35,277 nt of DNA from a virus (taxonomy: Duplodnaviria > Heunggongvirae > Uroviricota > Caudoviricetes), in IMG/VR virus record IMGVR_UViG_651053023_000020; one strand, given 5' to 3'. Within the stretch, counting starts at the first letter, position 1. Each line of letters opens with the position of its first letter. This document shows positions 931 to 35,277 of the stretch, one piece after another. The notes under the pieces were generated by a model. That model worked only from the letters and a program-made list of their open reading frames with translations, searched no databases and was not told where the DNA came from. Position numbers and translations under genes: made by a program.

Positions 931-1191
931 TTAATTCTGAGGTAAAGGCAAACTCATCTGATTGTTTCCCCTGTGTGAAGCTGGCAGATCATGCCATGGG
1001 ATACCTTCTGATGAGTGAACGCCGGAGGCGTGTTTCGATGTAAATTTATGGAAAGCTTCCAGTGTTGAGAAGCATACGCCGCATTCCAGGTTGTTACACT
1101 GGTAATACTTTTGCCGCACGGTGTTTGAATCATTTTCCGGACGACTGGTGCGGATACGGGCAGATGCGCCACAAAGCGGACAACGGAACAT
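931..1191 (-). CDS. ogr: Ogr-type zinc-finger late-gene transcription activator
   Basis: N-terminus MFRCPLCG...YQCNNLEC matches the C4 zinc-finger layout of P2 Ogr; positioned immediately after D as in P2. Confidence 0.85.
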   Translation of the reverse strand: MFRCPLCGASARIRTSRPENDSNTVRQKYYQCNNLECGVCFSTLEAFHKFTSKHASGVHSSEGIPWHDLPASHRGNNQMSLPLPQN

Positions 1192-2491: not shown

Positions 2492-3676
2492 ATGAGTGAA
2501 ACTCGTTTTCATGGTGCCCGTGTTACGGAAAATACCGACCTGGTAACAGCGATTAACGATGTTGATTCCAGCGTTATCGGTATCGTGGCAACGGCGGATG
2601 ATGCGGACGCGAAGCTGTTCCCGCTGAACAAGCCCACACTGCTGACCCGCGTCAATGACGTGCTGGGAAAATGCGGGACAACGGGGACGCTTTATCGTGC
2701 GCTTAAGGCCATCGCAGACCAGGTGAGCACAAAGGTGATCGTCGTTCGCGTGGCTGAACACAAAGAAGAAGACGGAAAGACGCAGGATCAACTGGTTATC
2801 GGTGGTTCTGAGGATGACGGCAGCTATACGGGGATGTATGCGCTGCTTGTTGCAGAGCAGGATGAAAGCATCGGATACCGTCCGCGTATTCTGGCCGCGC
2901 CGGAGCTGGACACGGAGGCTGTAACAAAATCCCTGTGCGTGATTGCAGGTAAACTGCGCGCGTTTGTGTATGCCTCATGTCACGGCTGTAACACGATGGC
3001 TGAGGCGATTACCTACCGCCAGAAATTCAACGAACGTGAGGTGATGCTCTTATGGCCGGACTTCATCGCCTACAACCCGAAAAGTGGCAAAAACGAAACG
3101 TTCCCCGCGTCTGCCTATGCGTGCGGCCTTCGTGCGTACATTGACCATGAGCAGGGATGGCACAAATCACTGTCCAACGTTCCGGTTAAAAATGTGCTGG
3201 GGATGTCGAGGCATGTGTTCTGGTCGTTGCAGGCCGAAGACAGCGATGCCAACAGCCTCAACAACAAAGAAATCACGACCATTATTCGTCGCAACGGGTT
3301 CCGCTTCTGGGGCAACCGCACACCGGAAACGAACGCCTACATCTTTGAGGTGTATACCCGAACCGCACAGGTGCTGGCTGATTCAATTGCGGAAGCGCAG
3401 TTTGAAACCATCGACAGTCCACTGACGCCTGCGAACGTGAAGGATGTTATCAGTGCCATCAGGGCAAAACTGGATTCACTGGTTACTGCCGGGAAACTGA
3501 TTGGCGCGGAGTGCTGGTATGACGTGGTGGATAACAGCACCACGGATTTACGTCAGGGGCGTGTGCGTATTCGCTACAAATATACGCCCGTTCCGCCACT
3601 GGAAGACATGGAGCTTTACCAGACGTTTACTGATGAATACTTTGAACCCGCATTTGCGGTGCTGGGAGGTGCCTGA
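2492..3676 (+). CDS. FI: contractile tail sheath protein gpFI
   Basis: 394-aa ORF with sheath-like sequence; SD upstream; stop overlaps tube gene start. Confidence 0.9.
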   Translation: MSETRFHGARVTENTDLVTAINDVDSSVIGIVATADDADAKLFPLNKPTLLTRVNDVLGKCGTTGTLYRALKAIADQVSTKVIVVRVAEHKEEDGKTQDQLVIGGSEDDGSYTGMYALLVAEQDESIGYRPRILAAPELDTEAVTKSLCVIAGKLRAFVYASCHGCNTMAEAITYRQKFNEREVMLLWPDFIAYNPKSGKNETFPASAYACGLRAYIDHEQGWHKSLSNVPVKNVLGMSRHVFWSLQAEDSDANSLNNKEITTIIRRNGFRFWGNRTPETNAYIFEVYTRTAQVLADSIAEAQFETIDSPLTPANVKDVISAIRAKLDSLVTAGKLIGAECWYDVVDNSTTDLRQGRVRIRYKYTPVPPLEDMELYQTFTDEYFEPAFAVLGGA

Positions 3677-4189
3677 TGGCTGTGCCAAAACATCTTCGCT
3701 TTTTTACGCTGTTTGTGGATGGTGAAAACGAAGTGGGTAAGGTGACGTCCGTCACTTTGCCTAAGCTGACGCGCAAAACCGACAGCTACCGGGGTGGTGG
3801 CATGATGGGGGCGGTAAGTATTGATCTCGGCCTGGACGACTCCGCGCTTGATGCGAGCTTTGTCATGGGGGGCGCAGTTCGTGAGCTGTTCCTTAAGTAT
3901 GGCGGCACGATTGACGGCACGCTGCTGCGTTTTGCGGGTGAATACTACACCGATGCAGAAAGCGACCTGTATGAAGTCGAAATGCGCGGACGTGTGACGG
4001 AAATTGATATGGGGGAAGCCAAAACAGGGCGAAGCCACATCACACACTTACGCCATTAAAAACACCTACTACAAGCTGAGCGTTAACGATCGCCCGTTGT
4101 GGGAGATTGACCTGCTGAACTTCATTTACCGGAAGGACGGCAAGGACATTGTGCCCGATCGCATCCGTTCCGCGCTTGGGCTTGGCTGA
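3676..4189 (+). pseudogene. FII: tail tube protein gpFII, interrupted by a +1 frameshift near 4027-4031
   Basis: Frame-1 ORF 3676-4059 matches the tube N-terminal region (SVTLPKLTRK...YRG.GM...DLGLDD...RFAG), frame-2 ORF 4004-4189 carries the C-terminal region; one extra base in a GGG-C-GAA context. Confidence 0.6.
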
Positions 4190-4243
4190 TAAGTAATATG
4201 CAGGCGGCGCAGTGCGTCGCCTCTGACTGAAAGGAGTTTCCTG

Positions 4244-4609
4244 ATGAAAGAGACGAAAAACATCGATACCGAAAACACGGTAGTTACTGACACTGTGAAA
4301 GAAACCAGTGAGCGTGGCGTAAAACTTACCCAACCAATTGAGCGAAGCGGCGAAAAAATCACGTATGTGGAGATCACCGGGGCTATTGAGCAGGCTGGAT
4401 CTCTGCGAGATTTGTCGCTGTCTGATGTGCTGAGTCTGAAAGCGGAATCCATGTTTACGCTGCTGTCACGCGTGACATCACCGCGACTGGATGAAGTGAC
4501 GATCAAAAAAATGGCATCCCGTGACTTTATTCAGTTATGTGTGGTTGCCGTAAATTTTTTGAGCGGTGCGGACTCTGGCGGGAAGAACGAACAGGCGACG
4601 GAAGCCTGA
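4244..4609 (+). CDS. E: tail assembly chaperone gpE
   Basis: 121-aa ORF with AAAGGAG SD, followed by overlapping -1 frame ORF as in P2 E/E'. Confidence 0.8.
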   Translation: MKETKNIDTENTVVTDTVKETSERGVKLTQPIERSGEKITYVEITGAIEQAGSLRDLSLSDVLSLKAESMFTLLSRVTSPRLDEVTIKKMASRDFIQLCVVAVNFLSGADSGGKNEQATEA

Positions 4610-4773
4610 TCACGGTTGTGTGCTTTGAGCACATAGAAGACTTTGTGGCAGATATTGCCGTTATTTTTAACTGGTCGCCCGCCGAAATCTTCATGATGAC
4701 GCCCGGCGAAGTGGTTAGCTGGCGTGAGCGGGCGGCACTTCGCAGCGGGAATGCAGACAATGAAGACTCTTGA
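4244..4773 (+). CDS. E+E': gpE+E' fusion made by programmed -1 ribosomal frameshift
   Basis: Slippery heptamer T_TTT_TTG at 4555-4561 in E frame; -1 frame continues open to stop at 4771-4773. Confidence 0.7.
4555..4561 (+). other. -1 programmed frameshift slippery site (TTTTTTG)
   Basis: X_XXY_YYZ heptamer positioned near end of E with open -1 frame downstream. Confidence 0.7.
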
Positions 4774-7567
4774 TATCCGGGTCGCTTTCAGCGCCGTTGA
4801 CAGGCTGACCCGACCTGCCGAAAACGCACGCCGCCTGATGGGGCAGTTTGGTGACTCCATCCAGCGAACGCAGGGGGCGATCAAAAATCTCGAGCGTCAG
4901 GCGCGTTCATTTGAGCGCGCCCGCGACGCTGTCAGTAAAGCGGATGCGGGTATCGTGAAAGCACGACGCCAGCTTAACGCCCTTAATCAGTTACAACGCA
5001 CGGGTACAGTGCTCAGCGAAAAACAACAAAAGCTGATGCAGCAGTTAAGCACCCGGCTTGAACGCCTGAATGAATCGCGCACACGGGAAATTCAGAAAAT
5101 GCGGGAGCTTGGCGGAGAGCTGAAACGCCACGGCATTTCCCTGACAGGCAGCGATAACACCATCCAGCAGGCCATCAGACGCACCGAACAGTACAACAAC
5201 CAGCTTGAACGCGAACGGCAGGCGCTTGCGCGTGTAACGCGGGCGCGTGAGCGGTATTCGCGCGTGCAGGAAACCGCGGGAAAACTGAAAACAGGTGGTG
5301 CGCTGGCAATTGGTGCGGCAGCGGCGGGCGGCTATGCTGCCGGGCGTTTTTTGCAGCCTGCGATCGGGTTCGGCAAAGAGATGTCCCGCGTTCAGGCACT
5401 GACGCGAATCGACCAGAACAGCCCGCAGTTTAAGGCGCTGCGTGAGCAGGCGTTAAAACTGGGCTCTGAAACGCAGTTCACCGCAGGCGATGCCGCCAGT
5501 GGACAGGCATTTCTTGCAATGGCTGGCTTTACACCACAGGCCATTCAGGCTGCGCTCCCTGGCGTACTGAGCATGGCAACGGCTGGCGGTATGGACCTCG
5601 GTGAGACGGCGGATATTGGCTCAAATATTCTGACGCAGTTCGGTCTTTCTGCTGACCAGATGGACCGGGTCGGCGACACACTCACCGCAGCGTTTACCCG
5701 TACCAACACTGACCTTCGCGCACTGGGTGAAACCATGAAATATGCAGGTCCGGTGGCGGGTAAGCTGGGAATATCGCTGGAGCAGGCCGCAGCGATGGCG
5801 GGCGTGCTGGCGAATATGGGTATCAGGGGGAGTGATGCTGGTACGGCAATGCGTGCCAGCCTGGCTCGTCTGGCATCACCGCCAAAGGCGGCAGCAGAGG
5901 CGCTGAAAGAGCTTGGCGTGTCTGTCTCGGATGCCGGGGGCAAAATGCGCCCGATGGAGGATGTGCTGGCTGACCTTTATAAAGCTACCCGCAAATACGG
6001 GGAAGTTGACCGGGTATCGTTCTTTAAGGACATTGCCGGAGAAGAGGCTTTCACATCATTTATGGCCCTCGTTGATGCGGCAGGTGACGGCTCCTTACCC
6101 AAACTGAGAAAAGAACTTGAAGGCGCGCGCGGTGAGGCTGAACGCACGGCAAAGGTTATGGCCAACAACCTTGACGGCGATCTGAAATCACTCAGCAGTG
6201 CATGGGAAGGGTTGCGCATCCGCATTGCAGATCTGATTGACGGTCCGCTGCGTTCTGTCACGCAGTGGCTCACGCGTGTGTTATCAAAGGTGACGGCGCT
6301 GGCGCAGGCCCATCCCGCACTGACGCGCCAGCTACTGATTGCAGGCGGCGCACTGCTGGCAATGACTGCAACGGTTGGCTCGTTGTCGCTGGCTATTGGT
6401 GTGCTTGCTGGCCCGCTGGCAAAACTGCGTCTTGGTTTTTCCCTCCTGACCGGATCAATGAATGCTGTCAGGGTTCTGCCAGCACTATGGGGAATGGTGA
6501 CGGGTTCCGTTTCTTTACTGGGAGGCGCTATCGGGGCGTTGTTCAGTCCGGTTGGTCTTATCGTGGCTGCGCTTGCCGGAGCTGCCGTTCTTATCTGGAA
6601 ATACTGGGATCCCATCAGGGCATTTTTTGCCGGGGTGTTCAGCGGGATTATGGAAAGGCTGACCCCGTTGCGCGAAACCTTTGAACGGTTTGGTCCTGTT
6701 TTTGACGCAATCGGGAGTGGGATCAGCCAGGTGTTTAACTGGTTTAAATCGCTGCTGTCACCGATGGAGTCCAGCAAGGAAACTCTGGATAAATGTACCA
6801 GTGCTGGCGAGATATTCGGTAACGTTCTTGGCGGTGCGTTACAACTTGTTCTGACACCTGCAAAAATGTTGCTGGATACGCTGGCGTGGATACTTGAAAA
6901 GCTTGGTGTGCTTCCGGATGAAGCGGAAAGGGCGCGCAAGAAAATCGAAGACGCACAGCGTGCGGCCATTCTTCAGGACAAGGTTGCCTTGCTTCAGGGG
7001 GACCTGGCGAAAATCAATCCACCGAAGCCTGTGGAAAATGGCAATGGCACCGGAGGTGATAACCCCAAAGACAATAAACCGCTCACAGACAGCAATACCG
7101 GTACGCTGCGCAGACTCAGCAAAATTGCTGATAACACAGGTAAGCTGGTTGAGGAGACGAAAAAACGCATTGGCCCCGGCGATATTGTCTTTAAAAACCT
7201 GCCCCGAGCACTTGCTGTTCGTGGGGAGTGGCAGGAGCGGAAGATTGCGCAGGTCAGTAAGCCTGCCCCCGCAATTAATATCACACCCGTGGTCCCGGCT
7301 CCGCTGCCTCCGGCGCTGGTCCCTGTTGTTGCGGCCAGCTCCCGCCCGGTGGCGGAGGCTATACGATCTCCAGTGGCATCAGTTCCTGTAACTTCCCGTA
7401 ACCGGGAGCCTGTTGCCTCCGGATTTGGTGGTGAAATTCATGTTCATCTGCATAACGTTGTTACGCAGAATCCCCGCGAACTGGCGAAACTGGTCGGTGA
7501 AATGGTCAGGGCAGAAATGGAACGGCGCGCCCGTGCCGGGCGTGGCAGTTTTTACGATAAAGATTGA
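4751..7567 (+). CDS. T: tail tape measure protein gpT
   Basis: About 940-aa protein with coiled-coil N-terminal part and hydrophobic/Gly-Ala-rich middle; start uncertain (ATG 4751 or 4760, track starts at GTG 4724). Confidence 0.85.
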   Translation: MQTMKTLDIRVAFSAVDRLTRPAENARRLMGQFGDSIQRTQGAIKNLERQARSFERARDAVSKADAGIVKARRQLNALNQLQRTGTVLSEKQQKLMQQLSTRLERLNESRTREIQKMRELGGELKRHGISLTGSDNTIQQAIRRTEQYNNQLERERQALARVTRARERYSRVQETAGKLKTGGALAIGAAAAGGYAAGRFLQPAIGFGKEMSRVQALTRIDQNSPQFKALREQALKLGSETQFTAGDAASGQAFLAMAGFTPQAIQAALPGVLSMATAGGMDLGETADIGSNILTQFGLSADQMDRVGDTLTAAFTRTNTDLRALGETMKYAGPVAGKLGISLEQAAAMAGVLANMGIRGSDAGTAMRASLARLASPPKAAAEALKELGVSVSDAGGKMRPMEDVLADLYKATRKYGEVDRVSFFKDIAGEEAFTSFMALVDAAGDGSLPKLRKELEGARGEAERTAKVMANNLDGDLKSLSSAWEGLRIRIADLIDGPLRSVTQWLTRVLSKVTALAQAHPALTRQLLIAGGALLAMTATVGSLSLAIGVLAGPLAKLRLGFSLLTGSMNAVRVLPALWGMVTGSVSLLGGAIGALFSPVGLIVAALAGAAVLIWKYWDPIRAFFAGVFSGIMERLTPLRETFERFGPVFDAIGSGISQVFNWFKSLLSPMESSKETLDKCTSAGEIFGNVLGGALQLVLTPAKMLLDTLAWILEKLGVLPDEAERARKKIEDAQRAAILQDKVALLQGDLAKINPPKPVENGNGTGGDNPKDNKPLTDSNTGTLRRLSKIADNTGKLVEETKKRIGPGDIVFKNLPRALAVRGEWQERKIAQVSKPAPAINITPVVPAPLPPALVPVVAASSRPVAEAIRSPVASVPVTSRNREPVASGFGGEIHVHLHNVVTQNPRELAKLVGEMVRAEMERRARAGRGSFYDKD

Positions 7568-7573
7568 GGAGTC

Positions 7574-8068
7574 ATGGCCATGATGATGATCTACGGCATG
7601 TTTGTTTTTGAGCTGCGCACGCTGCCGCATCAGCAGTTACAGCAAAACAAAAGCTGGCGGCATGTGAAAAATGAACGCGTTAACCGTTCAGCAAGCTGGC
7701 AGTATATCGGTGCAGGTGATGATCGCATCGTTCTTTCTGGTGTGCTTTATCCTGAAATTACAGGTGGCGAAGTGTCGCTGTCGCTGCTGACCACGCAGGC
7801 GTATACAGGACGACCCTGGCCTTTGATTGATGGCGTCGGGCAGATTTACGGCATGTATGTCCTGACTGAAACGAATACGACCCGCTCCGAGTTTGATCGC
7901 TACGGTAAGGCGAAAAAGATAGAATTTTCACTGACTCTTGAACGCTGTGATGAGGATTTGCGGGAGCGCCTGCAATCCTCATCGTTCAGTGATATGCTGT
8001 CCGGCTTCAAAGATAAGGTGACATCATCTCTTAACAGCGCGGCCAGTTCAGTTAAAGGGCTGTTCTGA
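7574..8068 (+). CDS. U: tail protein gpU
   Basis: 164-aa ORF resembling P2 gpU (N-terminus MMMIYGMFVF...SWRH...NRS); GAGGAG SD. Confidence 0.85.
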   Translation: MAMMMIYGMFVFELRTLPHQQLQQNKSWRHVKNERVNRSASWQYIGAGDDRIVLSGVLYPEITGGEVSLSLLTTQAYTGRPWPLIDGVGQIYGMYVLTETNTTRSEFDRYGKAKKIEFSLTLERCDEDLRERLQSSSFSDMLSGFKDKVTSSLNSAASSVKGLF

Positions 8069-8077
8069 TTTAACACA

Positions 8078-8107
8078 AAAACCGCTAATGGTCAGATTAG
8101 CGGTTTT
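8078..8107. terminator. bidirectional terminator hairpin between convergent U and invertase genes
   Basis: Perfect 12-bp stem AAAACCGCTAAT / ATTAGCGGTTTT, loop GGTCAG, flanked by A-run and T-run; overlaps last codons of invertase. Confidence 0.6.
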
Positions 8108-8696
8108 CATTTTCCTGAGTCTGCCCGGTTGTTTCTTCAGTCTGTATATCGCCTACAGGGTGATAACGATAAATCGTCGATGTGCCAATGCCGTAAATTA
8201 TTGCCAGTTGTTTTCTGTCGTGCCCGTTTTTGATTAGCCTTGCTATTTGCTCATGCTGTTCTTTTGTCAGCTTCGGTCGACGTCCGCCTGTGCGCCCCCT
8301 TGCGCGCGCTGCCGCCAGCCCGGCCAGTGTACGTTCAACAATTAATTCACGTTCCATTTCAGCCAGGGCACCCATCACGTGGAAGAAAAAACGCCCCATT
8401 GGAGAAGATGTGTCTATGCTGTCGGTCAGACTGCGAAAATTAATCCCTCGCTCCCGTAGTTCCCCGACGAGAGAAATCAGATGTTTCATGCTTCGCCCGA
8501 GGCGATCCAGTTTCCAGACAACCAGCGTGTCACCTTTTTGAAGGCGCTTTAAAGCGCGTTTTAATCCCGGTCGGTCTGTCTTTGTCCCGCTTAATTTATC
8601 TTCAAATATTTGTTCACATCCTGCACAAACAAGAGCGTTTCGTTGCAGGTCTGTATTCTGGTCATTTGTTGATACCCTTACATAGCCAATCAGCAC
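8097..8696 (-). CDS. serine recombinase, DNA invertase of Gin/Pin/Cin/Fin family
   Basis: Translation LIGYVRVSTNDQNTDLQRNAL...GDTLVVWKLDRLGRS... is near-identical in pattern to Gin-type invertases; start placed at GTG 8696 with GGGAGA SD. Confidence 0.9.
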   Translation of the reverse strand: MLIGYVRVSTNDQNTDLQRNALVCAGCEQIFEDKLSGTKTDRPGLKRALKRLQKGDTLVVWKLDRLGRSMKHLISLVGELRERGINFRSLTDSIDTSSPMGRFFFHVMGALAEMERELIVERTLAGLAAARARGRTGGRRPKLTKEQHEQIARLIKNGHDRKQLAIIYGIGTSTIYRYHPVGDIQTEETTGQTQENENR

Positions 8697-8750
8697 GCTG
8701 AATCTCCCGTCCAAAAGCGTAAATCATGCCATGCAGGTCAGAAACGGCCA

Positions 8751-8776
8751 TTATCTAAAACCTCGGTTTACAGGAA
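8751..8776. other. gix-like 26-bp crossover site (left boundary of invertible segment)
   Basis: TTATCTAAAACCTCGGTTTACAGGAA, matches gix/hix architecture; central dinucleotide TC. Confidence 0.8.
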
Positions 8777-8800
8777 ACGGTAAACAGGGCTGGTAACGCC

Positions 8801-9760
8801 GTGCAAAAAAATGGCGATACCTTGTCCGGTGGGCTTACTTTTGAAAATGACTCAATCCTTGCCTGGATTCGAAATACTGACTGGGCGAAGATTGGATTTA
8901 AAAATGATGCCGATGGTGACACTGATTCATACATGTGGTTTGAAACAGGCGACAACGGCAATGAATATTTCAAATGGAGAAGCAAACAAAGCACCACAAC
9001 AAAAGACCTGATGAATCTTAAATGGGATGCTTTGTATGTTCTTGTCAATGCCATTGTAAATGGCGAAGTCATATCAAAATCAGCAAACGGCCTACGTATT
9101 GCTTATGGTAATTACGGATTCTTTATTCGTAATGATGGTTCAAATACATACTTCATGTTGACAAACTCCGGTGACAACATGGGGACTTATAACGGATTAA
9201 GGCCATTATGGATTAATAACGCTACTGGCGCTGTTTCGATGGGGCGTGGCCTTAATGTTTCAGGGGAGACACTTTCAGACCGTTTTGCTATTAACAGCAG
9301 TAATGGTATGTGGATTCAGATGCGCGATAACAACGCTATCTTTGGGAAAAATATAGTTAACACTGATAGCGCTCAGGCGTTACTTCGCCAGAATCACGCC
9401 GACCGAAAGTTCATGATAGGTGGACTGGGGAACAAGCAATTTGGCATCTACATGATTAATAACTCAAGGACAGCCAATGGCACCGATGGTCAGGCGTACA
9501 TGGATAATAACGGGAACTGGCTTTGCGGTGCGCGAGTTATTCCCGGCAATTATGGTAATTTTGACTCACGTTATGTGAGAGATGTCCGACTTGGCACACG
9601 TGTTGTTCAGACTATGCAAAAAGGCGTGATGTATGAGAAATCAGGTCATGCAATTACGGGGCTTGGCATTGTCGGTGAAGTTGATGGCGATGATCCGGCA
9701 GTATTCAGACCAATACAAAAATACATCAATGGCACATGGTATAACGTCGCACAGGTGTAA
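8801..9760 (+). CDS. alternative tail fibre C-terminal (receptor-binding) domain, currently unfused (silent orientation)
   Basis: Frame is open from 8759, just inside the gix site; after inversion it would join the H constant part in frame (..YLGL|QETVNR..). Confidence 0.75.
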   Translation: MQKNGDTLSGGLTFENDSILAWIRNTDWAKIGFKNDADGDTDSYMWFETGDNGNEYFKWRSKQSTTTKDLMNLKWDALYVLVNAIVNGEVISKSANGLRIAYGNYGFFIRNDGSNTYFMLTNSGDNMGTYNGLRPLWINNATGAVSMGRGLNVSGETLSDRFAINSSNGMWIQMRDNNAIFGKNIVNTDSAQALLRQNHADRKFMIGGLGNKQFGIYMINNSRTANGTDGQAYMDNNGNWLCGARVIPGNYGNFDSRYVRDVRLGTRVVQTMQKGVMYEKSGHAITGLGIVGEVDGDDPAVFRPIQKYINGTWYNVAQV

Positions 9761-9763
9761 TTT

Positions 9764-10291
9764 ATGCAGCATTTAAAAAATATTAAGTCTGGAAATCCAA
9801 AAACAAAAGAACAATATCAGCTAACAAAGAATTTTGATGTTATCTGGTTATGGTCCGAAGACGGAAAAAACTGGTATGAGGAAGTGAAAAACTTTCAGCC
9901 AGACACAATAAAGATTGTTTACGATGCAAATAATATTATTGTCGCCATCACCAAAGATGCCTCCACGCTTAACCCTGAAGGTTATAGCGTCGTTGAGGTT
10001 CCTGATATTACAGCTAATCGTCGTGCTGATGATTCCGGTAAGTGGATGTTTAAGGACGGAGCTGTGGTTAAACGGATTTATACGGCAGACGAGCAACAAC
10101 AACAGGCCGAATCACAAAAGGCTGCGTTACTTTCCGAAGCAGAAAACGTTATTCAGCCACTGGAACGCGCTGTCAGGCTGAATATGGCGACGGATGAAGA
10201 GCGCGCACGACTGGAGTCATGGGAACGCTACAGCGTTCTGGTCAGCCGTGTGGATACAACAAAGCCAGAATGGCCACAAAAGCCTGAGTAA
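9764..10291 (+). CDS. tail fibre assembly chaperone, alternative copy
   Basis: 175 aa, N-terminal half about 70% identical to the expressed copy at 10320-10853. Confidence 0.8.
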
Positions 10292-10296
10292 AAATT

Positions 10297-10316
10297 AAGG
10301 CCCGATATCGGGCCTT
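10297..10316. terminator. palindromic hairpin between convergent fibre-assembly genes
   Basis: Perfect palindrome AAGGCCCGATATCGGGCCTT at the centre of the invertible segment. Confidence 0.55.
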
Positions 10317-10319
10317 CTC

Positions 10320-10853
10320 TCATTCTGGTTGTTCGGGGAACGTGACTGGCAGGACGGAGGTATCCGTAGACTCTACTTTCTGCGCGTAGAGCAGCCACTC
10401 GGTCAATTTTTGTTTATTCTCAGCAGAAATAATTCCAAGTCGTAGCTGAGAATCCCATAGCTGAGTTTTATCCCTGACGAGTTGTAACAGGTTTTGCTTC
10501 TCATTTTCCGCCTGTTGTCTCTGTTCTTCTTCGGTATATTCCCGCTTTATCACTGCGCCATCTTTGAACATCCAGTTACCCGAAATATCAGCACGGCGAT
10601 TTGCTGTAATATCAGGTAATTCAACGACGCTTGCGCCTTCTGGATTAATTGCTGAAACATCCTTTTCAATACAAATAATAACGCCGTTATGGTCATAGAC
10701 CATTTTCAACGTATCAGACTGGAAATTCTTTTGTTCCTCATACCAGTTTTTTCCATCCTCTGTATAAAGCCATTTGATGTTAAATCGCTTTGTTAGCTGG
10801 TATTGCTCCACTGTTTTAGGATTGCCAGCAGTAATATTTTTTAAGTGCATCAT
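10320..10853 (-). CDS. G: tail fibre assembly chaperone (gpG-like), expressed orientation
   Basis: 177-aa ORF immediately downstream of H, start overlaps H stop. Confidence 0.85.
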   Translation of the reverse strand: MMHLKNITAGNPKTVEQYQLTKRFNIKWLYTEDGKNWYEEQKNFQSDTLKMVYDHNGVIICIEKDVSAINPEGASVVELPDITANRRADISGNWMFKDGAVIKREYTEEEQRQQAENEKQNLLQLVRDKTQLWDSQLRLGIISAENKQKLTEWLLYAQKVESTDTSVLPVTFPEQPE

Positions 10854-10855
10854 AA

Positions 10856-12832
10856 TTAAATACTCCCCACGTTATACCAAGTCCCATTAATGCAATACTG
10901 AATTGGCCTTGCCTGAGTTGTATCAATTAGTTCATCTCTATTTGAGTTAACGGAACCGGTAACAACATAACCTGACTTATCAGACCAACCAGGTCCATTC
11001 CATGTCTGAACAGATGATAGGCCTCCTAAACGGACGCCTGTAATAAATCGTGAATTACATTCTGCTTTGGTATATGCACCAATATCTCCTGCTGATGGTT
11101 TGTGAGCGGTTGTATATAGTTGCGCCCATCCAGACCAATTAGCATCTGCTGTATCTCGTCGGGAGCGAATATATGCCGGAGCATGACCGCCGCTGGTCCC
11201 ACTCCACCCAATAAATAACTCTCCTTCGCCAACTGCCGCTACACCAGTAAGATGAAGAACGTTACCATAAGCAAAAGGATATCCATTTTTGTACGCTTCA
11301 TACATTTGGATACCTGGCGTACCCTTTGCGCTCCCACTTAATGCTGTAACACGGTTTCGGGATACTAACGTATTAATATTTATATCACTGGAACCATCAA
11401 ATTTAACGCCATTAATATTTCTTGCTGTTTTTAGCTTTGTTGCAGTAGCGGCATTGCCGGACAGCTCCCCAGAAAGGCCACCGCTGAATGTTTGTCGATT
11501 GGTCCAGGTATTCGCTGTACTGAGTAACGGTATTTTTTCCCCGCTTGTGCCGAGTTCTCGTAAACCGAGGTATTCGATAACGGCAGCAACGGTCGATTTC
11601 GCAAGAATATCCCGCCCGACTTTTGTCAGGGTTGCCAGGCTGGCGACATCATTCCCCGTAAAATACGGAAACTTGTCTGCCGCAGTAGCAAGCCCGGCCA
11701 GCGCCGTCAGGGTGGCATCTTTCGGTTGCTTACCCGCAAGCGCGTTAGTCATGGTGGTCGCAAAATTCGGGTCGTTTCCCAGCGCCGCCGCTAACTCGTT
11801 CAGCGTATTCAGTGCGTCAGGTGACGAATCTACAAGGGCGGCAATCGCAGCCATAACGAAAGCCGTGCTTGCGATTTGGGTATTATTCGTTCCCTGTCGC
11901 GCAGTTGGCGTTGTTGGCGTTCCGGTCAACGCAGGACTGTTTAAGGGCGCTTTCTTGTTCGTTTCATCCATTACCGCCTTAACCGCTTTCGATGTCGCGG
12001 CCAGTGTTTCAGACGTGCTGTTGGTGGCACTACTGAGCTGGACTATCCCTTTTTGTGCCGTCGTGGCGTCCTGAGCGGTATATTTTGCGTTAGCAAGGTC
12101 ATACGCGGCCTTTACTGCTTTCGGCGTTGCAGCCTGCGTTTCAGACGTGCTGTTGGTGGCGCTACTGAGCTGGACAAGGCCTTTTCGCGCTGTAGTGGCG
12201 TCCTGTGCGGTATATTTCCCGTTAGCAAGGTCATAGGCTGCCTTGACCGCTTTCGGCGTTGCGGCCAGTGCTTCAGACGTGCTGTTGGTGGCGCTACTGA
12301 GTTGAACAAAGCCTTTTGCGGTCAGCGAGGCGTCCGGGTGACGTCGTGACTGTTCGTGCTCTGAGATTTTGTCATCCACATATTTGCGGGTTGCCAGAAC
12401 CACAGACGGGTCGATTTTCAGCGTGATGGCTTCGGTGTTCGTGACAACCAGAATCATGCGGATAGTCTGGGTGCGTCCACTGCCTTCCTGCAACTGCGGT
12501 TTGTACGTTTCCGGGCAGTTCGCCACCGCAATGAGTACGCCTTCATCATCATAAAGCCCAATCTCACGGATCCAGAATCCTCCCTCGTTTTCAGGGATAA
12601 TTTGCTCCGCAATAATCTGGCTCTGATTGTTAGGGTCAACGCTCAGAAGATTCAGCGGTGCAATGCGTTTCTGGTTAATCAGTTTTGTCTGTGCCGGGTC
12701 TGGTGTCGGTAATACACCATTCGCATCACCAACGGCCATTTGCGTCAGATTCAGCTTACTGCCGAGCATCGTCGCGTTAGCCAGTCGTGCCGCGCCCTGA
12801 TTAGTCAGAATGGCGTAGTATTTCACTGTCAT
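10856..12832 (-). CDS. H: tail fibre protein gpH (constant N-terminal part plus currently fused variable C-terminal part)
   Basis: 658 aa; N-terminus resembles P2 gpH; gix-like site lies inside the coding region at 11555-11580. Confidence 0.9.
   Translation of the reverse strand: MTVKYYAILTNQGAARLANATMLGSKLNLTQMAVGDANGVLPTPDPAQTKLINQKRIAPLNLLSVDPNNQSQIIAEQIIPENEGGFWIREIGLYDDEGVLIAVANCPETYKPQLQEGSGRTQTIRMILVVTNTEAITLKIDPSVVLATRKYVDDKISEHEQSRRHPDASLTAKGFVQLSSATNSTSEALAATPKAVKAAYDLANGKYTAQDATTARKGLVQLSSATNSTSETQAATPKAVKAAYDLANAKYTAQDATTAQKGIVQLSSATNSTSETLAATSKAVKAVMDETNKKAPLNSPALTGTPTTPTARQGTNNTQIASTAFVMAAIAALVDSSPDALNTLNELAAALGNDPNFATTMTNALAGKQPKDATLTALAGLATAADKFPYFTGNDVASLATLTKVGRDILAKSTVAAVIEYLGLRELGTSGEKIPLLSTANTWTNRQTFSGGLSGELSGNAATATKLKTARNINGVKFDGSSDININTLVSRNRVTALSGSAKGTPGIQMYEAYKNGYPFAYGNVLHLTGVAAVGEGELFIGWSGTSGGHAPAYIRSRRDTADANWSGWAQLYTTAHKPSAGDIGAYTKAECNSRFITGVRLGGLSSVQTWNGPGWSDKSGYVVTGSVNSNRDELIDTTQARPIQYCINGTWYNVGSI
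11555..11580. other. gix-like 26-bp crossover site (right boundary, inside H)
   Basis: TTCTCGTAAACCGAGGTATTCGATAA, 22/26 match to reverse complement of the 8751-8776 site; central dinucleotide GA. Confidence 0.8.
11985..12360. repeat. three tandem repeats of about 126 bp inside H (42-aa fibre repeat VQLSSATNSTSE...KYTAQDATTA)
   Basis: Repeated ttcagacgtgctgttggtggcgctactgag... at roughly 12008, 12134 and 12264; approximate extent. Confidence 0.7.
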
Positions 12833-13437
12833 GCGTTTACTCTCAGGTTATCAATTAAATGAATGACCGAGGCCGGGAAATAATCCCCTCCGACAATAAT
12901 TGCCTCCGGGGTGTAGGGATAAACCGTCAGGGCGTCACCGTGATAGCATCCCGTACCAACGAAAATATTTCCGTTCACACTCAGGCTGATCGCCAGCCCT
13001 GTCAGATGGCGACTTACTGGTTTTGCATCCGCAATAAGGCGCTCAAGTTCCTGATACATTTCATCGGTGATGCCCTGATCAAGTACTCCGACAACAATGC
13101 GAAATGTTCCCGGCTCCTCGTTGAGTTGCCACCACTCCTTTACTTCAATCAGGTAGCCGAGAGGCTCTACGGCTCTTCGCAGTGCGCTGATGGTCCCTTT
13201 GTGTCGGTGTATCAGCCATGCATCACGAATCACCTGTCGCTTTGTCTCTTCCGGCCAGTTGCGATCCCAGCGGTCAACGGAAAATGCCCAGGCGAGATAA
13301 GGCAGCAGATGCACCGGGCATGTGTCCGGCGACCACAGCGTGTTGAGGTCTACCGGAATGTCTGTAATGCGTGTTCCGACGGCTTCGGCACAACGCATGA
13401 AACTGCTGGCTGATGGTGGTAACAGTGAATTACTCAT
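12829..13437 (-). CDS. I: baseplate protein gpI
   Basis: Position between J and H and recall of P2 gpI; start at ATG 13437 overlapping J stop. Confidence 0.8.
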   Translation of the reverse strand: MSNSLLPPSASSFMRCAEAVGTRITDIPVDLNTLWSPDTCPVHLLPYLAWAFSVDRWDRNWPEETKRQVIRDAWLIHRHKGTISALRRAVEPLGYLIEVKEWWQLNEEPGTFRIVVGVLDQGITDEMYQELERLIADAKPVSRHLTGLAISLSVNGNIFVGTGCYHGDALTVYPYTPEAIIVGGDYFPASVIHLIDNLRVNA

Positions 13438-14326
13438 TGCGCCCACCTTCGCTGATGGTGAATGACTCACAGCGCGCCGCCTGTATGTCGCTGATGGCCA
13501 TATTCTGTGTGGGTTCGATTATCTCCACGCGTTGCACACCGTGCACATGCAGTGCGGCAGCAATGGCGGACAACGCCACGTCCTGACCGATAAGCCCCTG
13601 CTCAGCCAGCCACTTCCTGAACGACGATTCAGCCGCAGCCAGAATAGGTTCGGATTCCGGGCCGGGGTAAAAGTACAGTTTTGCATTCAGCCGCCATGTC
13701 ACGATGCTGGCGCTCTGTACGGTCAGGCGGTCGGCCACCGGGCGGGTATCCTCTGCATTCAGAACGGCGCGAACGGTATTAAGCAACGCCTCCGTTGCTG
13801 TGCCGTCGCCTTCAGTGGACAGGATGGAAACCGTCACATTTGCCGGAGACGGACTGATAGCCCGCGCATCACGCACCAGACCGCTGGCGCTGCGGGCAAA
13901 ATACTCGTATGCACCTGACGGGCCAGCAACACTCAGGCCGTCATACGCCCGCTGCGCCCGCAGTCTCAGCGAGGTGTCGCTTTCCATCACCGCGTCGGTG
14001 GTATCCGTTGCCGGAGTGATAACCAGGCGCTTTGTGTTCATATTGCCCGCGAGGTTGTCCAGGTCTGCCCCGGCGCTGTGGCTTAGCATGCAGGCGCGTG
14101 CACCCTCATTGACCCGCTGGCGTAACAGCATTTCACGAAACGCTGTTGTCTGGGCGATAACGTTCAGGGGTTCCGATTCCAGCTCCAGCGCGGCGGAAAC
14201 GGCTTCACGCTGTTCGGCGGGATAAGCCGCAATCATCATGGCCTTTGTGTCAGCCAGAATTGCCTCAAAGTCAGGCTCCGCGATGATGGCGGGGTCCGGT
14301 AACTGTGAAAGGTCAACGGCGGGCAT
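13430..14326 (-). CDS. J: baseplate assembly protein gpJ
   Basis: 298-aa ORF, family recall plus position between W and I. Confidence 0.85.
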   Translation of the reverse strand: MPAVDLSQLPDPAIIAEPDFEAILADTKAMMIAAYPAEQREAVSAALELESEPLNVIAQTTAFREMLLRQRVNEGARACMLSHSAGADLDNLAGNMNTKRLVITPATDTTDAVMESDTSLRLRAQRAYDGLSVAGPSGAYEYFARSASGLVRDARAISPSPANVTVSILSTEGDGTATEALLNTVRAVLNAEDTRPVADRLTVQSASIVTWRLNAKLYFYPGPESEPILAAAESSFRKWLAEQGLIGQDVALSAIAAALHVHGVQRVEIIEPTQNMAISDIQAARCESFTISEGGRNE

Positions 14327-14329
14327 GAT

Positions 14330-14680
14330 TTACTCCCTCAGCGTGATGGTTAATTCAACATTCTGCATGGTCTGCATGACAGTGCCCGACAGCGTCACCC
14401 CGGCGCGGCCTCCCGCTTTCCAGACAACGTCGATGGCATCCAGGGCAATGCGGGGTTCCCATCGTGTCAGCGCAATCACGGCAGCACTCATGCATTGCAG
14501 ACGCGTGGTGTTATTCATGGGTTCGTCAATCAAATCAGGCACAAGGCTGCCATATTCCCGTCGCATAACCCGGCTTGCCAGTGGGGTGGTCAGGATGTCC
14601 CTGACTGACTGTTTCAGGTGCTCCATATCGTTCAGGTTTCCCGTTCCGTCCGGGTTCATTCCTGTGTAGCGGGTTGTCAC
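14330..14680 (-). CDS. W: baseplate protein gpW (gp25-like)
   Basis: About 115 aa; track start is GTG 14680 overlapping V stop, alternative ATG at 14659. Confidence 0.8.
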   Translation of the reverse strand: MTTRYTGMNPDGTGNLNDMEHLKQSVRDILTTPLASRVMRREYGSLVPDLIDEPMNNTTRLQCMSAAVIALTRWEPRIALDAIDVVWKAGGRAGVTLSGTVMQTMQNVELTITLRE

Positions 14681-15258
14681 TGCGGGCCTCCTGTCGAATC
14701 GCTGCCACCTTTCACGCCACCGTGTTTATGCGTATGCACGGTAATGCCGTTTGAGGTGAAATCGCCGCCGCTGTGCGTGATATTGCCGCTCATCTTTCCC
14801 CCTTTTGTGACGTCAAGCGTCGCCGTTCTCAGAAGGTTTGTGCATTCCACGACGGGCGTGTCCAGTGTCACGCTGACGGATGCCTGTAAAGTGGCCGTTT
14901 TCATGCCGCTGGCGCTCAGTGCGCCTGCGTCCGCGTCGTAGCGGAACACCGCGCCGTCCGGCGCGCTGATCACGATTTCTTTCAGGCTTTTGCCGGGGGC
15001 CGGATTGGCATCACTCCACAGGCTGCCAATTATCATGGCGGTTTCCGGGTTGCCGCCAATGCAGGCAATTACCACCTGTTCGCCTGGTGATGGCGGCAGC
15101 CACACATTGAAGGCTCCCGCGCGCGTGGTGTTCCAGCGCAACCAGCCTGTCTCCAGTTCGCCGCTGCGAACGCGCACGCGCCAGGACTTCTCATCAACTT
15201 CAGAGATGATCCCGGTGCGGATGATATTGCTCAGCAGTCGCATGAGTTCTGCGCTCAC
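14677..15258 (-). CDS. V: baseplate spike protein gpV
   Basis: 193 aa resembling P2 gpV (..IRTGII.E.D...R.RV..G...T.WL.W). Confidence 0.85.
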   Translation of the reverse strand: MSAELMRLLSNIIRTGIISEVDEKSWRVRVRSGELETGWLRWNTTRAGAFNVWLPPSPGEQVVIACIGGNPETAMIIGSLWSDANPAPGKSLKEIVISAPDGAVFRYDADAGALSASGMKTATLQASVSVTLDTPVVECTNLLRTATLDVTKGGKMSGNITHSGGDFTSNGITVHTHKHGGVKGGSDSTGGPQ

Positions 15259-26654: not shown

Positions 26655-27614
26655 TTACTCCTTGTCCATTGCGTACAGCCCATTAACCAGAGCAAACTGT
26701 GGCACCCCGTCCGCGATGAAAGTCGCATTAACTCCGCAGGCTTCGCGGATAGCGGGTGCCACAATCTCCGCCCCGCCACCGACAACCATCACCCGCCCGT
26801 AACCCGAAAAACCCGCCAGCGCGCGGATCACGCGTTGTTTCAGTGTTTCTTCCTTTTCACGAATAACCGCCATCAGGCTGTCGTAATGCGCGTCATTGTG
26901 GATGTGCTGGCGCAGCCAGGCTTCATCGTGGCGATGTTCGATAATGGTATTGGCGATATGGTGACTGGTACGCATACCGTTAGTGGCCATCACCGACAGT
27001 ACGGCATCGGCCATCAGGGAAACGCCTACGTGTGGATCGCAAAACACCTGGCTGATACCTGCCAGTTGTCCCTGGACCTTTGCCACATCCAGCGTGGTTC
27101 CGCCTAAATCCACAATCAGCAGGGATTCAAACGGACTCATGTCAGCCAGTGCCTTAAAGCCAGCCGGAATGGATTCAGGCATAACCCGCACGTTACGGAT
27201 AGTGAATGCTTCGCCGTTCTGGTACTCCACCGGGCGCATAACGTTCGCTTTTTTGCGGTTGATGTTGGCCATGTCCGGCTGTGCGTTTGTGTCGAAATAC
27301 TCGCTCAGTGGCAGGGTGACAACCACATCCACCTCCTGTGGTGTGATGCCTGATTTGACCAGCGCGTGGTGAATGGCGATTACATTCACATCGCTGTACT
27401 GGTATTGCGTGTCGGTCGTCTGGACAAAGCGATCGCTGACCGGATCAAAACCATAGCGCACGCCATCAAGCATGTAGTTCGCAGGCTGCGAGCCACCGAA
27501 CGGCGCAGACCATTCCGACTTGAAGCTGTTCGGGCTGATGGCGTTGCGGCGTTCGCTGTTCTCAGTCCATGCCAGCTTGATGTTGGTGGAGCCGTCGTCG
27601 ATACAAATTTTCAT
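26655..27614 (-). CDS. ParM/StbA-like actin-family segregation ATPase
   Basis: IDDGSTNIKLAW, SPNSFK, YQYSDVNVIAIHHAL, MPESIPAG, LLIVDLGGTTLD, VMVVGGGAE and LVNGLY motifs match plasmid R1 ParM as recalled. Confidence 0.75.
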   Translation of the reverse strand: MKICIDDGSTNIKLAWTENSERRNAISPNSFKSEWSAPFGGSQPANYMLDGVRYGFDPVSDRFVQTTDTQYQYSDVNVIAIHHALVKSGITPQEVDVVVTLPLSEYFDTNAQPDMANINRKKANVMRPVEYQNGEAFTIRNVRVMPESIPAGFKALADMSPFESLLIVDLGGTTLDVAKVQGQLAGISQVFCDPHVGVSLMADAVLSVMATNGMRTSHHIANTIIEHRHDEAWLRQHIHNDAHYDSLMAVIREKEETLKQRVIRALAGFSGYGRVMVVGGGAEIVAPAIREACGVNATFIADGVPQFALVNGLYAMDKE

Positions 27615-27646: not shown

Positions 27647-27755
27647 TTACGGGATTCTGAAATCCCGTTTTTGCCTGTTTTGTGCGCGCTTCATATATCG
27701 CTGCGCGTTTTTTGCTCATTTACGGGATTCGTGAGTCCCGTTTCTGTCTGTTTTT
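27647..27755. repeat. two about 36-bp direct repeats each containing a hairpin (candidate parC-like centromere/operator)
   Basis: ttacgggattctgaaatcccgtttttgcctgtttt (27647-27682) and ttacgggattcgtgagtcccgtttctgtctgtttt (27719-27755); second copy overlaps the 3' end of gene A. Confidence 0.5.
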
Positions 27756-34215: not shown

Positions 34216-34281
34216 CGGTTCACCAGGCATTTATTTCCCAGAGCTGTGATCAAGATGATGTTTTCATTGGAGGGCTTCCTT

Positions 34282-35277
34282 ATGTCGATTAAGAAGCTCG
34301 CTAATGGCAAATTTTGTGTGGACGTGCGGCCAGCTGGATCAGAAGGAAAGAGATTCAGGCGGCGATTTGATACTCGTGGTGAGGCTGTTTTGTATGAGCG
34401 TCATGTATTGCAGCATTACCACGACAAAGATTGGGTTGATAAGCCAACAGAACGGCGCTCGCTGAGGGAGTTGCTGGATTGTTGGTGGCTATACCACGGG
34501 AAAAATCATCCTTACGGTGCGATGGAGCGAGTGCGTATTTCTGCGGTCATTAGTGATCTTGAAAGTATTAATGTTACACGCAGTGACCAACTTACTCGTA
34601 AGAACATAATTAATTATCGGTTATTGTTGCTTAATCGCGGAATAAAACAATCCACGGTTAATCGTTATTGCGCAATGATGAGTGGTTTCTTCACAAAACT
34701 AATTGACGCAGAGGAATATTCTGGGGCTAATCCGTTTCATGATGTGAAAAAACTTAATATCAAACAGCCTGAAATGGCTTATTTGTATCATGAAGATATT
34801 CCACGATTACTGGAGTTGTTATCTGGTGATGAATTAAAAGCCGTCTTGTTGTGTCTGGCAACAGGTGGAAGATGGAGTGAGGTTGCAAATATCAAGGGGG
34901 AGCATGTTATTAGCGGCAAAGTCATTTTTATGGAAACCAAAAATGGGAAGCGTCGCGTTATACCTATATCGTCAGAACTGGAGTGCATGATTAAAACAAA
35001 GGCCACTGGTCGTTTAATTTATCCAAGTTATGCAGCTGTCAGAGCTGCTATCAGAAAGGTGAGGCCTGATCTTCCTGAAGGGCAGTCGATACATGTTTTA
35101 CGGCATACCTTTGCCACTCACTTCATGATTAATGGTGGGAATATCATCACTTTGCAGAGAATACTTGGACATAGCACTATTCAGCAGACGATGACTTATG
35201 CCCATTTTGCACCGGATTATCTACAGGATGCTGTGCGCTTTAATCCTGTGGCTGAGTTGTCCAGATATTGCCCATAA
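34282..35277 (+). CDS. int: tyrosine integrase (P2 Int family)
   Basis: C-terminal HxLRHTFATHF...GHS...MTYAHFAPDYL catalytic region; start at ATG 34282 with GGAGGG SD; stop is last codon of window. Confidence 0.9.
   Translation: MSIKKLANGKFCVDVRPAGSEGKRFRRRFDTRGEAVLYERHVLQHYHDKDWVDKPTERRSLRELLDCWWLYHGKNHPYGAMERVRISAVISDLESINVTRSDQLTRKNIINYRLLLLNRGIKQSTVNRYCAMMSGFFTKLIDAEEYSGANPFHDVKKLNIKQPEMAYLYHEDIPRLLELLSGDELKAVLLCLATGGRWSEVANIKGEHVISGKVIFMETKNGKRRVIPISSELECMIKTKATGRLIYPSYAAVRAAIRKVRPDLPEGQSIHVLRHTFATHFMINGGNIITLQRILGHSTIQQTMTYAHFAPDYLQDAVRFNPVAELSRYCP

Follow-up and report, generated by a model that had tools for sequence, protein, structure and literature searches.

The tail fiber locus of this prophage raises the question of whether the phage can exchange one receptor-binding tip for another by inverting a segment of its own DNA. 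The locus lies in a stretch of 35,277 nucleotides (here called the window), in which a first-pass annotation, made from the sequence alone, had proposed a Gin-type invertase with an invertible tail fiber cassette. The cassette and its surroundings consist of the following features, given in the order of their coordinates.

8078-8107, no strand assigned: terminator-like hairpin with a 12-bp stem, between the convergent U gene and invertase gene.
8097-8696, minus strand: Gin-type serine DNA invertase, 199 aa, assigned by Pfam, PHROG, identity to Mu Gin, and PDB matches.
8491-8696, minus strand: 5' part of the invertase gene, homologous by DNA identity to the enhancer (sis)-bearing part of Mu gin.
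8751-8776, minus strand: crossover site A (gixR-like), on the invertase side, with 1 mismatch to Mu gix.
8765-9760 (ORF 8801-9760), plus strand: silent fiber tip Hv' (Mu S-type), assigned by Mu S, PDB 5YVQ, and Pfam.
9764-10291, plus strand: silent tail fiber assembly chaperone (Mu U-type), with Pfam Caudo_TAP.
10297-10316, no strand assigned: perfect 20-nt palindrome AAGGCCCGATATCGGGCCTT between the convergent units.
10320-10853, minus strand: expressed tail fiber assembly chaperone (Mu U'-type), with Pfam Caudo_TAP.
10856-11566, minus strand: expressed variable tip Hv of H, a mosaic of Mu S'/P1 Sv' type.
11555-11580, plus strand: crossover site B (gixL-like), within H, with 4 mismatches to Mu gix.
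11567-12832, minus strand: constant part Hc of the tail fiber gene H, about 424 aa.

The sequence of the protein encoded beside the cassette supports its membership in the Gin/Hin/Cin/Pin family of enhancer-dependent serine DNA invertases. It contains Resolvase (E 1.5e-50) and HTH_7 (E 4e-13) domains in Pfam and matches the DNA invertase family in PHROG (E 1e-96). The proposed Gin-type identity was upheld by 85% identity to Mu Gin, by a nearly identical catalytic domain, and by the best matches among solved structures, which are to Gin (4M6F, E 3e-100; 3UJ3, E 1.4e-99). Divergence from Gin is much greater in the DNA-binding domain (residues ~120 to 199), to which the Hin DNA-binding domain 1HCR aligns at residues 139 to 185, than in the catalytic domain. 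Inactivating changes in catalytic residues had been named as evidence that would speak against a functional switch. However, the catalytic serine of Gin, S9 (PMC3575834), is retained as Ser9 within a VRVSTNDQ motif, and K39R is the single difference from Mu Gin in residues 1 to 119. H106 and M114 are the wild-type Gin residues, M114V being a Fis-independent change in Gin (PMC3575834); therefore, the invertase carries no known Fis-independent change. The open frame reaches upstream to a TTG at 8714, but the GTG at 8696, which is the annotated start in relatives, is the most likely initiation codon. In the assembly collection, 13,761 blocks list the identical protein.

In gin, hin, and cin, the Fis-dependent recombinational enhancer sits inside the 5' part of the gene. 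Because the first 206 nt of the invertase gene contain 3 mismatches to Mu gin DNA (about 99% identity), the Mu enhancer sequence has very probably been retained. Candidate matches to a Fis motif, which is degenerate and thus unspecific, were located at 8596, 8561, and 8550. A promoter scan of positions 7900 to 13000 gave fewer matches than shuffled sequences did, and within that range neither an invertase promoter nor a promoter-like site inside the cassette was found above chance.

The first-pass annotation had also placed two inverted 26-bp gix-like sites around the cassette, and our alignments confirmed their positions, their orientation, and their identity to each other at 22 of 26 positions. 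Read on the minus strand, site A is TTCCTGTAAACCGAGGTTTTAGATAA, with the halves TTCCTGTAAACC-GA-GGTTTTAGATAA; read on the plus strand, site B is TTCTCGTAAACCGAGGTATTCGATAA, with the halves TTCTCGTAAACC-GA-GGTATTCGATAA. The two share a GA core when aligned as inverted repeats, and the central dinucleotides are complementary as described, reading TC and GA on the plus strand. Alignment to gix, which had been suggested as a check, revealed differences from both Mu gix sites at 1 nt in site A and 4 nt in site B over the 26 positions. A separate repeat search recovered the same pair as 30-nt arms with 83% complementarity. When the whole 35-kb window was scanned with a degenerate pattern built from A and B, allowing up to 3 mismatches, only A and B matched, and no match occurred in 100 shuffles. 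The window therefore holds no third gix-like copy, and an arrangement of more than two crossover sites, as in multisite shufflon-type systems, was not found in it at this threshold.

Between the sites, two convergent pairs, each a fiber tip and a chaperone, had been described on either side of a perfect palindrome; the ORF map, the Caudo_TAP domain in both chaperones, and the 20-nt palindrome agree with that description. The silent tip, which contains a Gp34_trimer domain, has 88% amino acid identity to residues 171 to 504 of Mu S, matches PDB 5YVQ (tail fiber protein S; E 3e-193), and lacks both a start codon and a promoter. Its chaperone is 94% identical to Mu U at the amino acid level. On the other strand, the expressed chaperone is 93% identical to Mu U', and its match among solved structures is the paralogous Mu U (PDB 5YVQ_B, E 3e-60). 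Over its C-terminal ~105 aa, the expressed tip is almost the same as the Mu S' portion of PDB 8JU3 (E 3e-52), and by tblastn the tip is 79% identical to P1 Sv'. At the DNA level it shares 99.5% identity with the S' copy that lies silent in a Mu-like prophage of E. coli TUM9757, and only 1 of 5,426 complete E. coli genomes contains this variant, there in a Mu-like prophage. The palindrome also scores as a terminator-like hairpin and is a probable bidirectional terminator. Across positions 8751 to 11102, the cassette DNA is 94% identical to D108 and 91% identical to the Mu G and P1 C segments.

The whole H gene occupies 10856-12832 on the minus strand, and its 3' part falls within the cassette. 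The constant part contains an N-terminal Phage_tail_fib domain and Phage_fiber_2 repeats in Pfam, with three 132-nt tandem repeats at 11976-12371. Site B does lie in the H coding sequence, as had been stated. The silent frame had been said to be open from just inside the other site. Its open stretch starts at 8759, and the closest stop before it, a TAA at 8756-8758, sits in the outer half of site A, past the crossover point. In silico inversion of positions 8763 to 11568 yields an uninterrupted H of 753 aa, compared with 658 aa at present, and the first 424 residues are common to both products. The junction of Hc and Hv' is predicted to read ...CCGTTTCCTGTAAACCGAGGTATTCGATAACGG... after inversion. 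The proposed exchange of the H C terminus is thus in frame. With a constant 5' part outside the segment and alternative 3' parts inside, the locus fits a tail fiber host-range switch of the Mu G-segment type.

Among related E. coli prophages, both states of the switch occur. The predicted inverted junction is present at a coverage of at least 80% in 127 complete E. coli genomes, with the best match in E. coli EC14 (99.4% over 1226 nt). In EC14 and in two further relatives (L002 and L008), each site is an exact recombinant of half-sites found in the window. In the flipped relatives, the inner half-sites accompany the inverted cassette, whereas the outer ones remain in place; the crossover therefore falls at the core, and the comparison is a neat natural demonstration of crossover at the central dinucleotide. 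The fixed outer half GGTATTCGATAA adjoins Hc in all 12 of the Xuanwuvirus relatives examined. Four loci (L005, L011, L012, and L013) encode exactly the invertase protein of the window; the cassettes of the first three match the L013 cassette at 99.6 to 99.8% identity over 2773 bp but are oriented the other way. The same combination of sites and enzyme therefore occurs in both orientations among relatives. A search of the E. coli genomes for the native junction of Hc and Hv gave no match at a coverage of at least 80%, which reflects the rarity of the expressed tip variant and not of the orientation. An exact-sequence look-up likewise returned no record of the H protein of the window.

The best explanation, in which we have high confidence, is that a Mu-family G segment and gin occupy the tail fiber locus of a P88-like prophage and form a two-tip inversion switch. 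The reading of the locus as an invertible tail fiber cassette is sustained by the enzyme, the 91 to 94% DNA match of the cassette, the in-frame inversion, and the flipped relatives. By analogy with Gin, dimers of the invertase would bind both 26-bp sites and would be activated by host Fis bound in cis to the enhancer that the 5' part of their own gene carries. The enzyme would then cut at the central GA of both sites, and a 180-degree rotation of the DNA followed by rejoining would invert about 2.8 kb. Whichever tip faces site B would be expressed, together with the chaperone downstream of it, because the H promoter, the start codon, and the first 424 codons lie outside the segment. The present state corresponds to G(-) of Mu, producing the 658-aa H with a Mu S'/P1 Sv'-type tip and the U'-type chaperone, and the flipped state would produce the 753-aa H with a Mu S-type tip and the U-type chaperone. 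Given two alternative tips, a population of lysogens would release virions of two receptor specificities.

The phage that carries the switch had been described as having a P2-type backbone. Its closest matches identify it as a P88-like Xuanwuvirus (Peduoviridae) and not as P2 proper: the best phage matches are Xuanwuvirus records, 92 to 94% identical over the aligned parts, and the backbone is 96 to 98% identical to the prophage of E. coli EC14. The late genes of P2 run collinearly on one strand in the order V-W-J-I-H-G-(Z/fun)-FI-FII-E-T-U-D. This collinear order of P2 sensu stricto (genus Peduovirus) was not found in the window, where the plus strand carries FI-FII-E-T-U and the minus strand carries D and V-W-J-I-H. 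The same split-strand arrangement is seen in the Xuanwuvirus records and in the EC14 prophage. The description as P2-type accordingly stands at the level of the family but not below it, since the FI-U operon is on the strand opposite V-W-J-I-H, as in Xuanwuvirus. The window contains the P2-family Pfam domains GPD, sheath, tube, GpU, Tail_P2_I, GPA, and Cox. We also considered a second, larger inversion of the FI-U operon by the invertase at a third gix-like site, and rejected it because the operon borders contain no such site or inverted repeat and because the arrangement is conserved across Xuanwuvirus.

The switch had been described as intact, and taken by itself it is, but the prophage as a whole is not, owing to a frameshift in its tail tube gene, FII. 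This +1 frameshift leaves 127 aa compared with 170 aa and results from a single A, near position 4021, in excess of the number in the EC14 relative. The frameshift is specific to the window's copy, and the truncated tube protein has no match on record by exact-sequence look-up. A further 23 genes, for tail, head, lysis, and late control, were compared with EC14 and align over their full lengths without stops, and the extra A may be a sequencing error. If the frameshift is real, the prophage would produce no infectious virions and the switch would have no phage-level consequence in this host. Genes for the head, tail, lysis, replication, Cox, repressor, and integrase are present. A tailocin was considered and rejected, as the window includes genes for capsid, terminase, portal, lysis, replication, and integrase functions.

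The frameshift bears on an alternative interpretation, in which the locus has the architecture of a Gin-type switch but inversion of this copy has ceased or has become irrelevant, whether through divergence of the sites, lack of invertase expression, or a defective prophage. A disabled tube gene among 23 others of full length would suit such a fossil, unless the extra A is an error of sequencing. The 4 mismatches of site B to Mu gix also point in this direction. These departures, at 4 of 26 positions, were among the features that we counted against an active two-tip switch, together with the diverged DNA-binding domain of the invertase, the tube frameshift, and the lack of an invertase promoter above chance level. 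A 1-nt insertion in the invertase-side site of L013 indicates that decay of such sites does occur. However, the invertase ORF is complete, and elsewhere the identical protein is encoded beside cassettes of either orientation; relatives in both states share these two outer half-sites, and both tips and both chaperones are uninterrupted. We consider a locked switch unlikely; the window's own copy is probably active.

It is very improbable that a tail-defective prophage keeps the complete switch or its invertase for the benefit of the bacterium, either by altering susceptibility to other phages through blocked adsorption or by inverting other gix-flanked segments in trans: the tube frameshift, if real, would favor this, and two reports provide a precedent in PinQ and PinR, Pin-type invertases of cryptic prophages that are reported to affect T2 adsorption (PMC12529663; bioRxiv 10.1101/2025.03.28.646004), but the window is otherwise a complete phage genome and no sequence feature points beyond fiber switching.

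The two-tip inversion switch is thus a correct but already known finding, of the textbook Gin/G-segment host-range type, and the same module is present in thousands of E. coli genomes. It offers little new biology; the locus is a clean and complete instance of such a switch, and it shows the whole module of G segment plus gin moving between Mu-like and P2-like phages. For annotation, H should be joined to either tip, and host-range prediction for the prophage must allow for two fibers.

The layout is that of the G segment of Mu and D108, with a constant part, gix, a tip and chaperone, a convergent chaperone and tip, gix, and an invertase on the same strand as the fiber gene. Unlike in Mu, the constant part is a P2-type H, with a tail-collar N terminus and Phage_fiber_2 repeats, instead of Mu S; the outer half-site on the H side is GGTATTCGATAA; the DNA-binding domain of the invertase has diverged; a mosaic variant of S' forms the expressed tip; and the carrier is a Peduoviridae prophage instead of a transposable phage. 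The Xuanwuvirus members compared (Escherichia phages 503458, 520873, and P88/P884B11, Citrobacter phage phiSM, and prophages of UTI89, ST131 strains, and EC14) share the order D(-), FI-FII-E-T-U(+), invertase(-), cassette, H-I-J-W-V(-) and the same two sites, and several of them have the identical invertase protein. The window differs from them in its exact H protein, its rare tip, and its copy-specific tube frameshift.

The C segment of P1 and P7 (Cin) and the P segment of e14 (Pin) are likewise served by enhancer-dependent serine invertases acting on 26-bp sites inside a fiber gene. The window DNA is 91% identical to the P1 C segment over the common part, and its expressed tip is 79% identical to Sv'. 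However, its invertase is closer to Gin than to Cin or Pin, and its backbone differs from those of P1 and P7, which are plasmid prophages, and of e14, a defective lambdoid element. The locus had been called a recognized type of host-range switch, and this type is indeed known: in P2-like prophages of EPEC E2348/69, phase variation of tail fiber segments has already been quantified, with inversion measured experimentally in cultures (Goldberg et al. 2014, PMC4272514). With its two sites only, the window resembles one of the EPEC loci, a simple two-state switch, and differs from a second one, in which there are several inverted repeats and four variants (PMC4272514).

The first-pass annotation proposed a recognized type of switch, in which a Gin-type invertase adjoins an invertible tail fiber cassette. 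An ORF map, together with the sequence itself, gave the following layout:

8097-8714, minus strand, resolvase-type gene (extent as ORF)
8801-9760, plus strand, fiber-tip ORF (silent)
9764-10291, plus strand, chaperone ORF (silent)
10320-10853, minus strand, second chaperone (expressed)
10856-12832, minus strand, tail fiber gene H, 658 aa

The two tip-chaperone pairs converge, as annotated, on a perfect palindrome, AAGGCCCGATATCGGGCCTT (10297-10316), which was scored as a terminator-like hairpin. A repeat search of the window recovered the inverted pair 8747-8776 and 11555-11584. Read as inverted repeats, its 26-mers, TTCCTGTAAACCGAGGTTTTAGATAA and TTCTCGTAAACCGAGGTATTCGATAA, are identical at 22 positions and share a central GA, in agreement with the annotated pair of 26-bp sites. 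One site (A, 8751-8776) lies on the invertase side and the other (B, 11555-11580) within H. A degenerate pattern derived from both matched only these two places in the 35-kb window with up to three mismatches and had no matches in 100 shuffles; the bare core motif AAACCNNGGTTT was not enriched elsewhere in the window. The constant part of H (Hc) lies outside the segment, and the two alternative tip and chaperone units lie inside it. Just inside site A, the frame of the silent tip stays open from 8759 onward; the TAA that closes it (8756-8758) lies beyond the crossover point. Inversion of 8763-11568 in silico yielded an uninterrupted H of 753 aa that shares residues 1 to 424 with the present protein. 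The fusion is in frame in either state, and the predicted swap of the H C terminus holds. The ORF map, sites, palindrome, frames, and in silico inversion therefore confirm every element of the annotated switch. Within Hc, positions 11976-12371 contain three tandem 132-nt (44-aa) Phage_fiber_2 repeats, the second and third copies being 84% and 62% identical to the first.

Pfam assigns Resolvase and HTH_7 domains to the invertase, and its PHROG match is DNA invertase. Read from a GTG at 8696, it is 199 aa long and 85% identical to Gin of phage Mu, and its top solved-structure matches are the Gin entries 4M6F (E = 3e-100) and 3UJ3 (E = 1.4e-99). A gap-free DNA alignment to Mu gixR-gin extends from site A across the initial 206 nt of the gene, where only three mismatches to gin occur. 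The Fis-dependent enhancer of the Mu, Hin, and Cin systems is located in this 5' part of the invertase gene. K39R is the sole difference from Gin in residues 1 to 119, and the catalytic Ser9 (PMC3575834), H106, and M114 are in the wild-type state, M114V being a known Fis-independent change in Gin (PMC3575834). The two inverted sites with an identical core are thus accompanied by an invertase that is complete and carries the catalytic domain of Gin. This exact protein occurs in 13,761 blocks of the assembly collection. Compared with Gin, it is a mosaic: the catalytic domain is approximately 99% identical, and the DNA-binding C-terminal third (residues ~120 to 199; window 8097-8330) is far more diverged, its acidic tail also being longer. 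Likewise, the half-site most diverged from gix is the fixed outer one on the H side, GGTATTCGATAA.

Window positions 8751-11102 share 94% DNA identity with the G segment of D108 and 91% with both the Mu G and the P1 C segment. In the silent unit, the tip matches PDB 5YVQ and has 88% identity to residues 171 to 504 of Mu S, and the chaperone has 94% identity to Mu U. In the expressed unit, the chaperone has 93% identity to Mu U', and its solved-structure match is 5YVQ_B, the paralogous Mu U; the C-terminal ~105 residues of the tip are almost the same as in the Mu S' part of PDB 8JU3, and the remainder resembles P1 Sv'. Judged by these matches of invertase, tips, chaperones, and cassette DNA, the locus is a Mu-family G segment with gin, and its present state corresponds to Mu G(-). 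For the expressed tip (10856-11584), a counterpart with 99.5% identity also exists in E. coli TUM9757 (L015 7001-7729), as the silent S' copy within a Mu-like prophage's G segment; the similarity breaks off precisely at the crossover site. The tip is a rare variant, found in TUM9757 only among 5,426 complete E. coli genomes. Its recurrence there is evidence that G-segment modules have been exchanged between Mu-like and P2-like phages.

The junction predicted for the inverted state, queried as 600 nt each of Hc and the silent tip, was found at a coverage of at least 80% in 127 complete genomes of E. coli. The match in strain EC14 is 99.4% identical over all 1,226 nt, and the prophage of this strain is collinear with the window on either side and reversed between the sites. 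The EC14 sites, TTCCTGTAAACC-GA-GGTATTCGATAA and TTCTCGTAAACC-GA-GGTTTTAGATAA, are the half-sites of the window swapped exactly at the core. Both states therefore occur in natural relatives, the exchange lying at the core. At 12 related Xuanwuvirus loci, GGTATTCGATAA is always the outer half adjoining Hc, the outer half adjoining the invertase is GGTTTTA(A/G)ATAA in 11, and the inner halves (TTCTCG... or TTCCTG...) travel with the adjoining tip. Among the ten listed loci encoding the identical invertase protein, the cassettes of L005, L011, and L012 are 99.6 to 99.8% identical to that of L013 over 2,773 bp, in the opposite orientation. L013 is the exception among the outer halves, with a 1-nt insertion in its invertase-side crossover site (5920-5945), and L007 (4014-5946), also with the identical invertase, has a shortened cassette of ~1.9 kb, a 448-aa H, and no called chaperones; these two loci are possible examples of locked or decayed switches. 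The flipping inferred from relatives in both states agrees with published work: EPEC cultures have been used to quantify tail fiber segment inversion in P2-like prophages (PMC4272514), this P2-like phage hotspot often shows a DNA invertase next to genes that are inverted (bioRxiv 10.1101/2024.10.15.618418), and tail fiber genes are enriched among predicted programmed inversions, some confirmed by long reads (PMC9881135).

By analogy with Gin and Hin, invertase dimers would bind each site, and Fis on the enhancer in the 5' part of the invertase gene would activate a synaptic tetramer on supercoiled DNA. Both strands would be cut at GA through a Ser9-phosphodiester link, followed by a 180-degree subunit rotation and religation. 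Virions would then bear either an S'-type or an S-type tip. In Mu, these tips, the alternatives of G(+)/G(-), differ in their LPS-core receptors and in host range. This is a textbook system. E. coli widely carries the same invertase and cassettes that are nearly identical, and reference phage records already annotate them.

The first-pass reading is correct except in two respects, the backbone genus and the description "intact." Pfam and PHROG searches recovered P2-family proteins (D, sheath FI, tube FII, U, I, H, gpA, Cox, and an integrase), as expected of the "P2-type backbone" annotated. However, the late genes of P2 are collinear, whereas in the window the FI-FII-E-T-U operon (2492-8068, plus strand) converges on the invertase, opposite in strand to D (1234-2466) and V-W-J-I-H (10856-15258). 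Escherichia phage 503458 and Citrobacter phage phiSM, both Xuanwuvirus (Peduoviridae), and the EC14 prophage, with a backbone 96 to 98% identical, have the same gene order as the window. A secondary inversion of the FI-U operon was rejected, as the window contains no third gix site and the Xuanwuvirus relatives share the order. By gene-order comparison, the opposite-strand operon is a conserved Xuanwuvirus (P88-like) arrangement and no local rearrangement.

As for "intact," the complete invertase and the in-frame tips support it, but FII (3676-4186) has one extra A at ~4021 relative to EC14, causing a +1 frameshift. FII is 170 aa in relatives; here the original frame covers 127 aa (3676-4059) and the next frame the rest (4013-4186), and an exact-sequence lookup returned no record of the shortened protein. 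The comparison with EC14 covered 23 further genes (tail, head, lysis, and late control), which align at full length with no stops, I and X being short of only 1 to 2 terminal residues. The extra A may be a sequencing error, or the prophage may be truly defective; in the latter case, the switch would have no consequence for phage spread from this host.

The window starts at an ATG and ends at the stop codon of the integrase gene (34246-35277), with no attachment site or host flank; apparently, a predicted prophage was trimmed to its gene boundaries. Tail chaperone E (4244-4609) and baseplate protein I (12916-13437) are only 76% and 79% identical to EC14 in amino acid sequence. Because their neighbors are 96 to 100% identical, this divergence indicates probable local mosaic replacement. 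In the early region, a ParM/StbA-type actin-like plasmid segregation protein (26655-27614, minus strand; Pfam E = 8e-82) adjoins the gpA replication gene (27720-30512). In the region of 599-739 and 931-1191 (both minus strand), a 46-aa ORF, equivalent by position only to an EC14 prophage gene annotated as Hok/Gef family, adjoins an Ogr/Delta-type late activator 99% identical to that of EC14. EC14 has an additional hypothetical gene of ~1 kb between ogr and D that is absent in the window; on this comparison, the ogr-D region is therefore a putative cargo hotspot.
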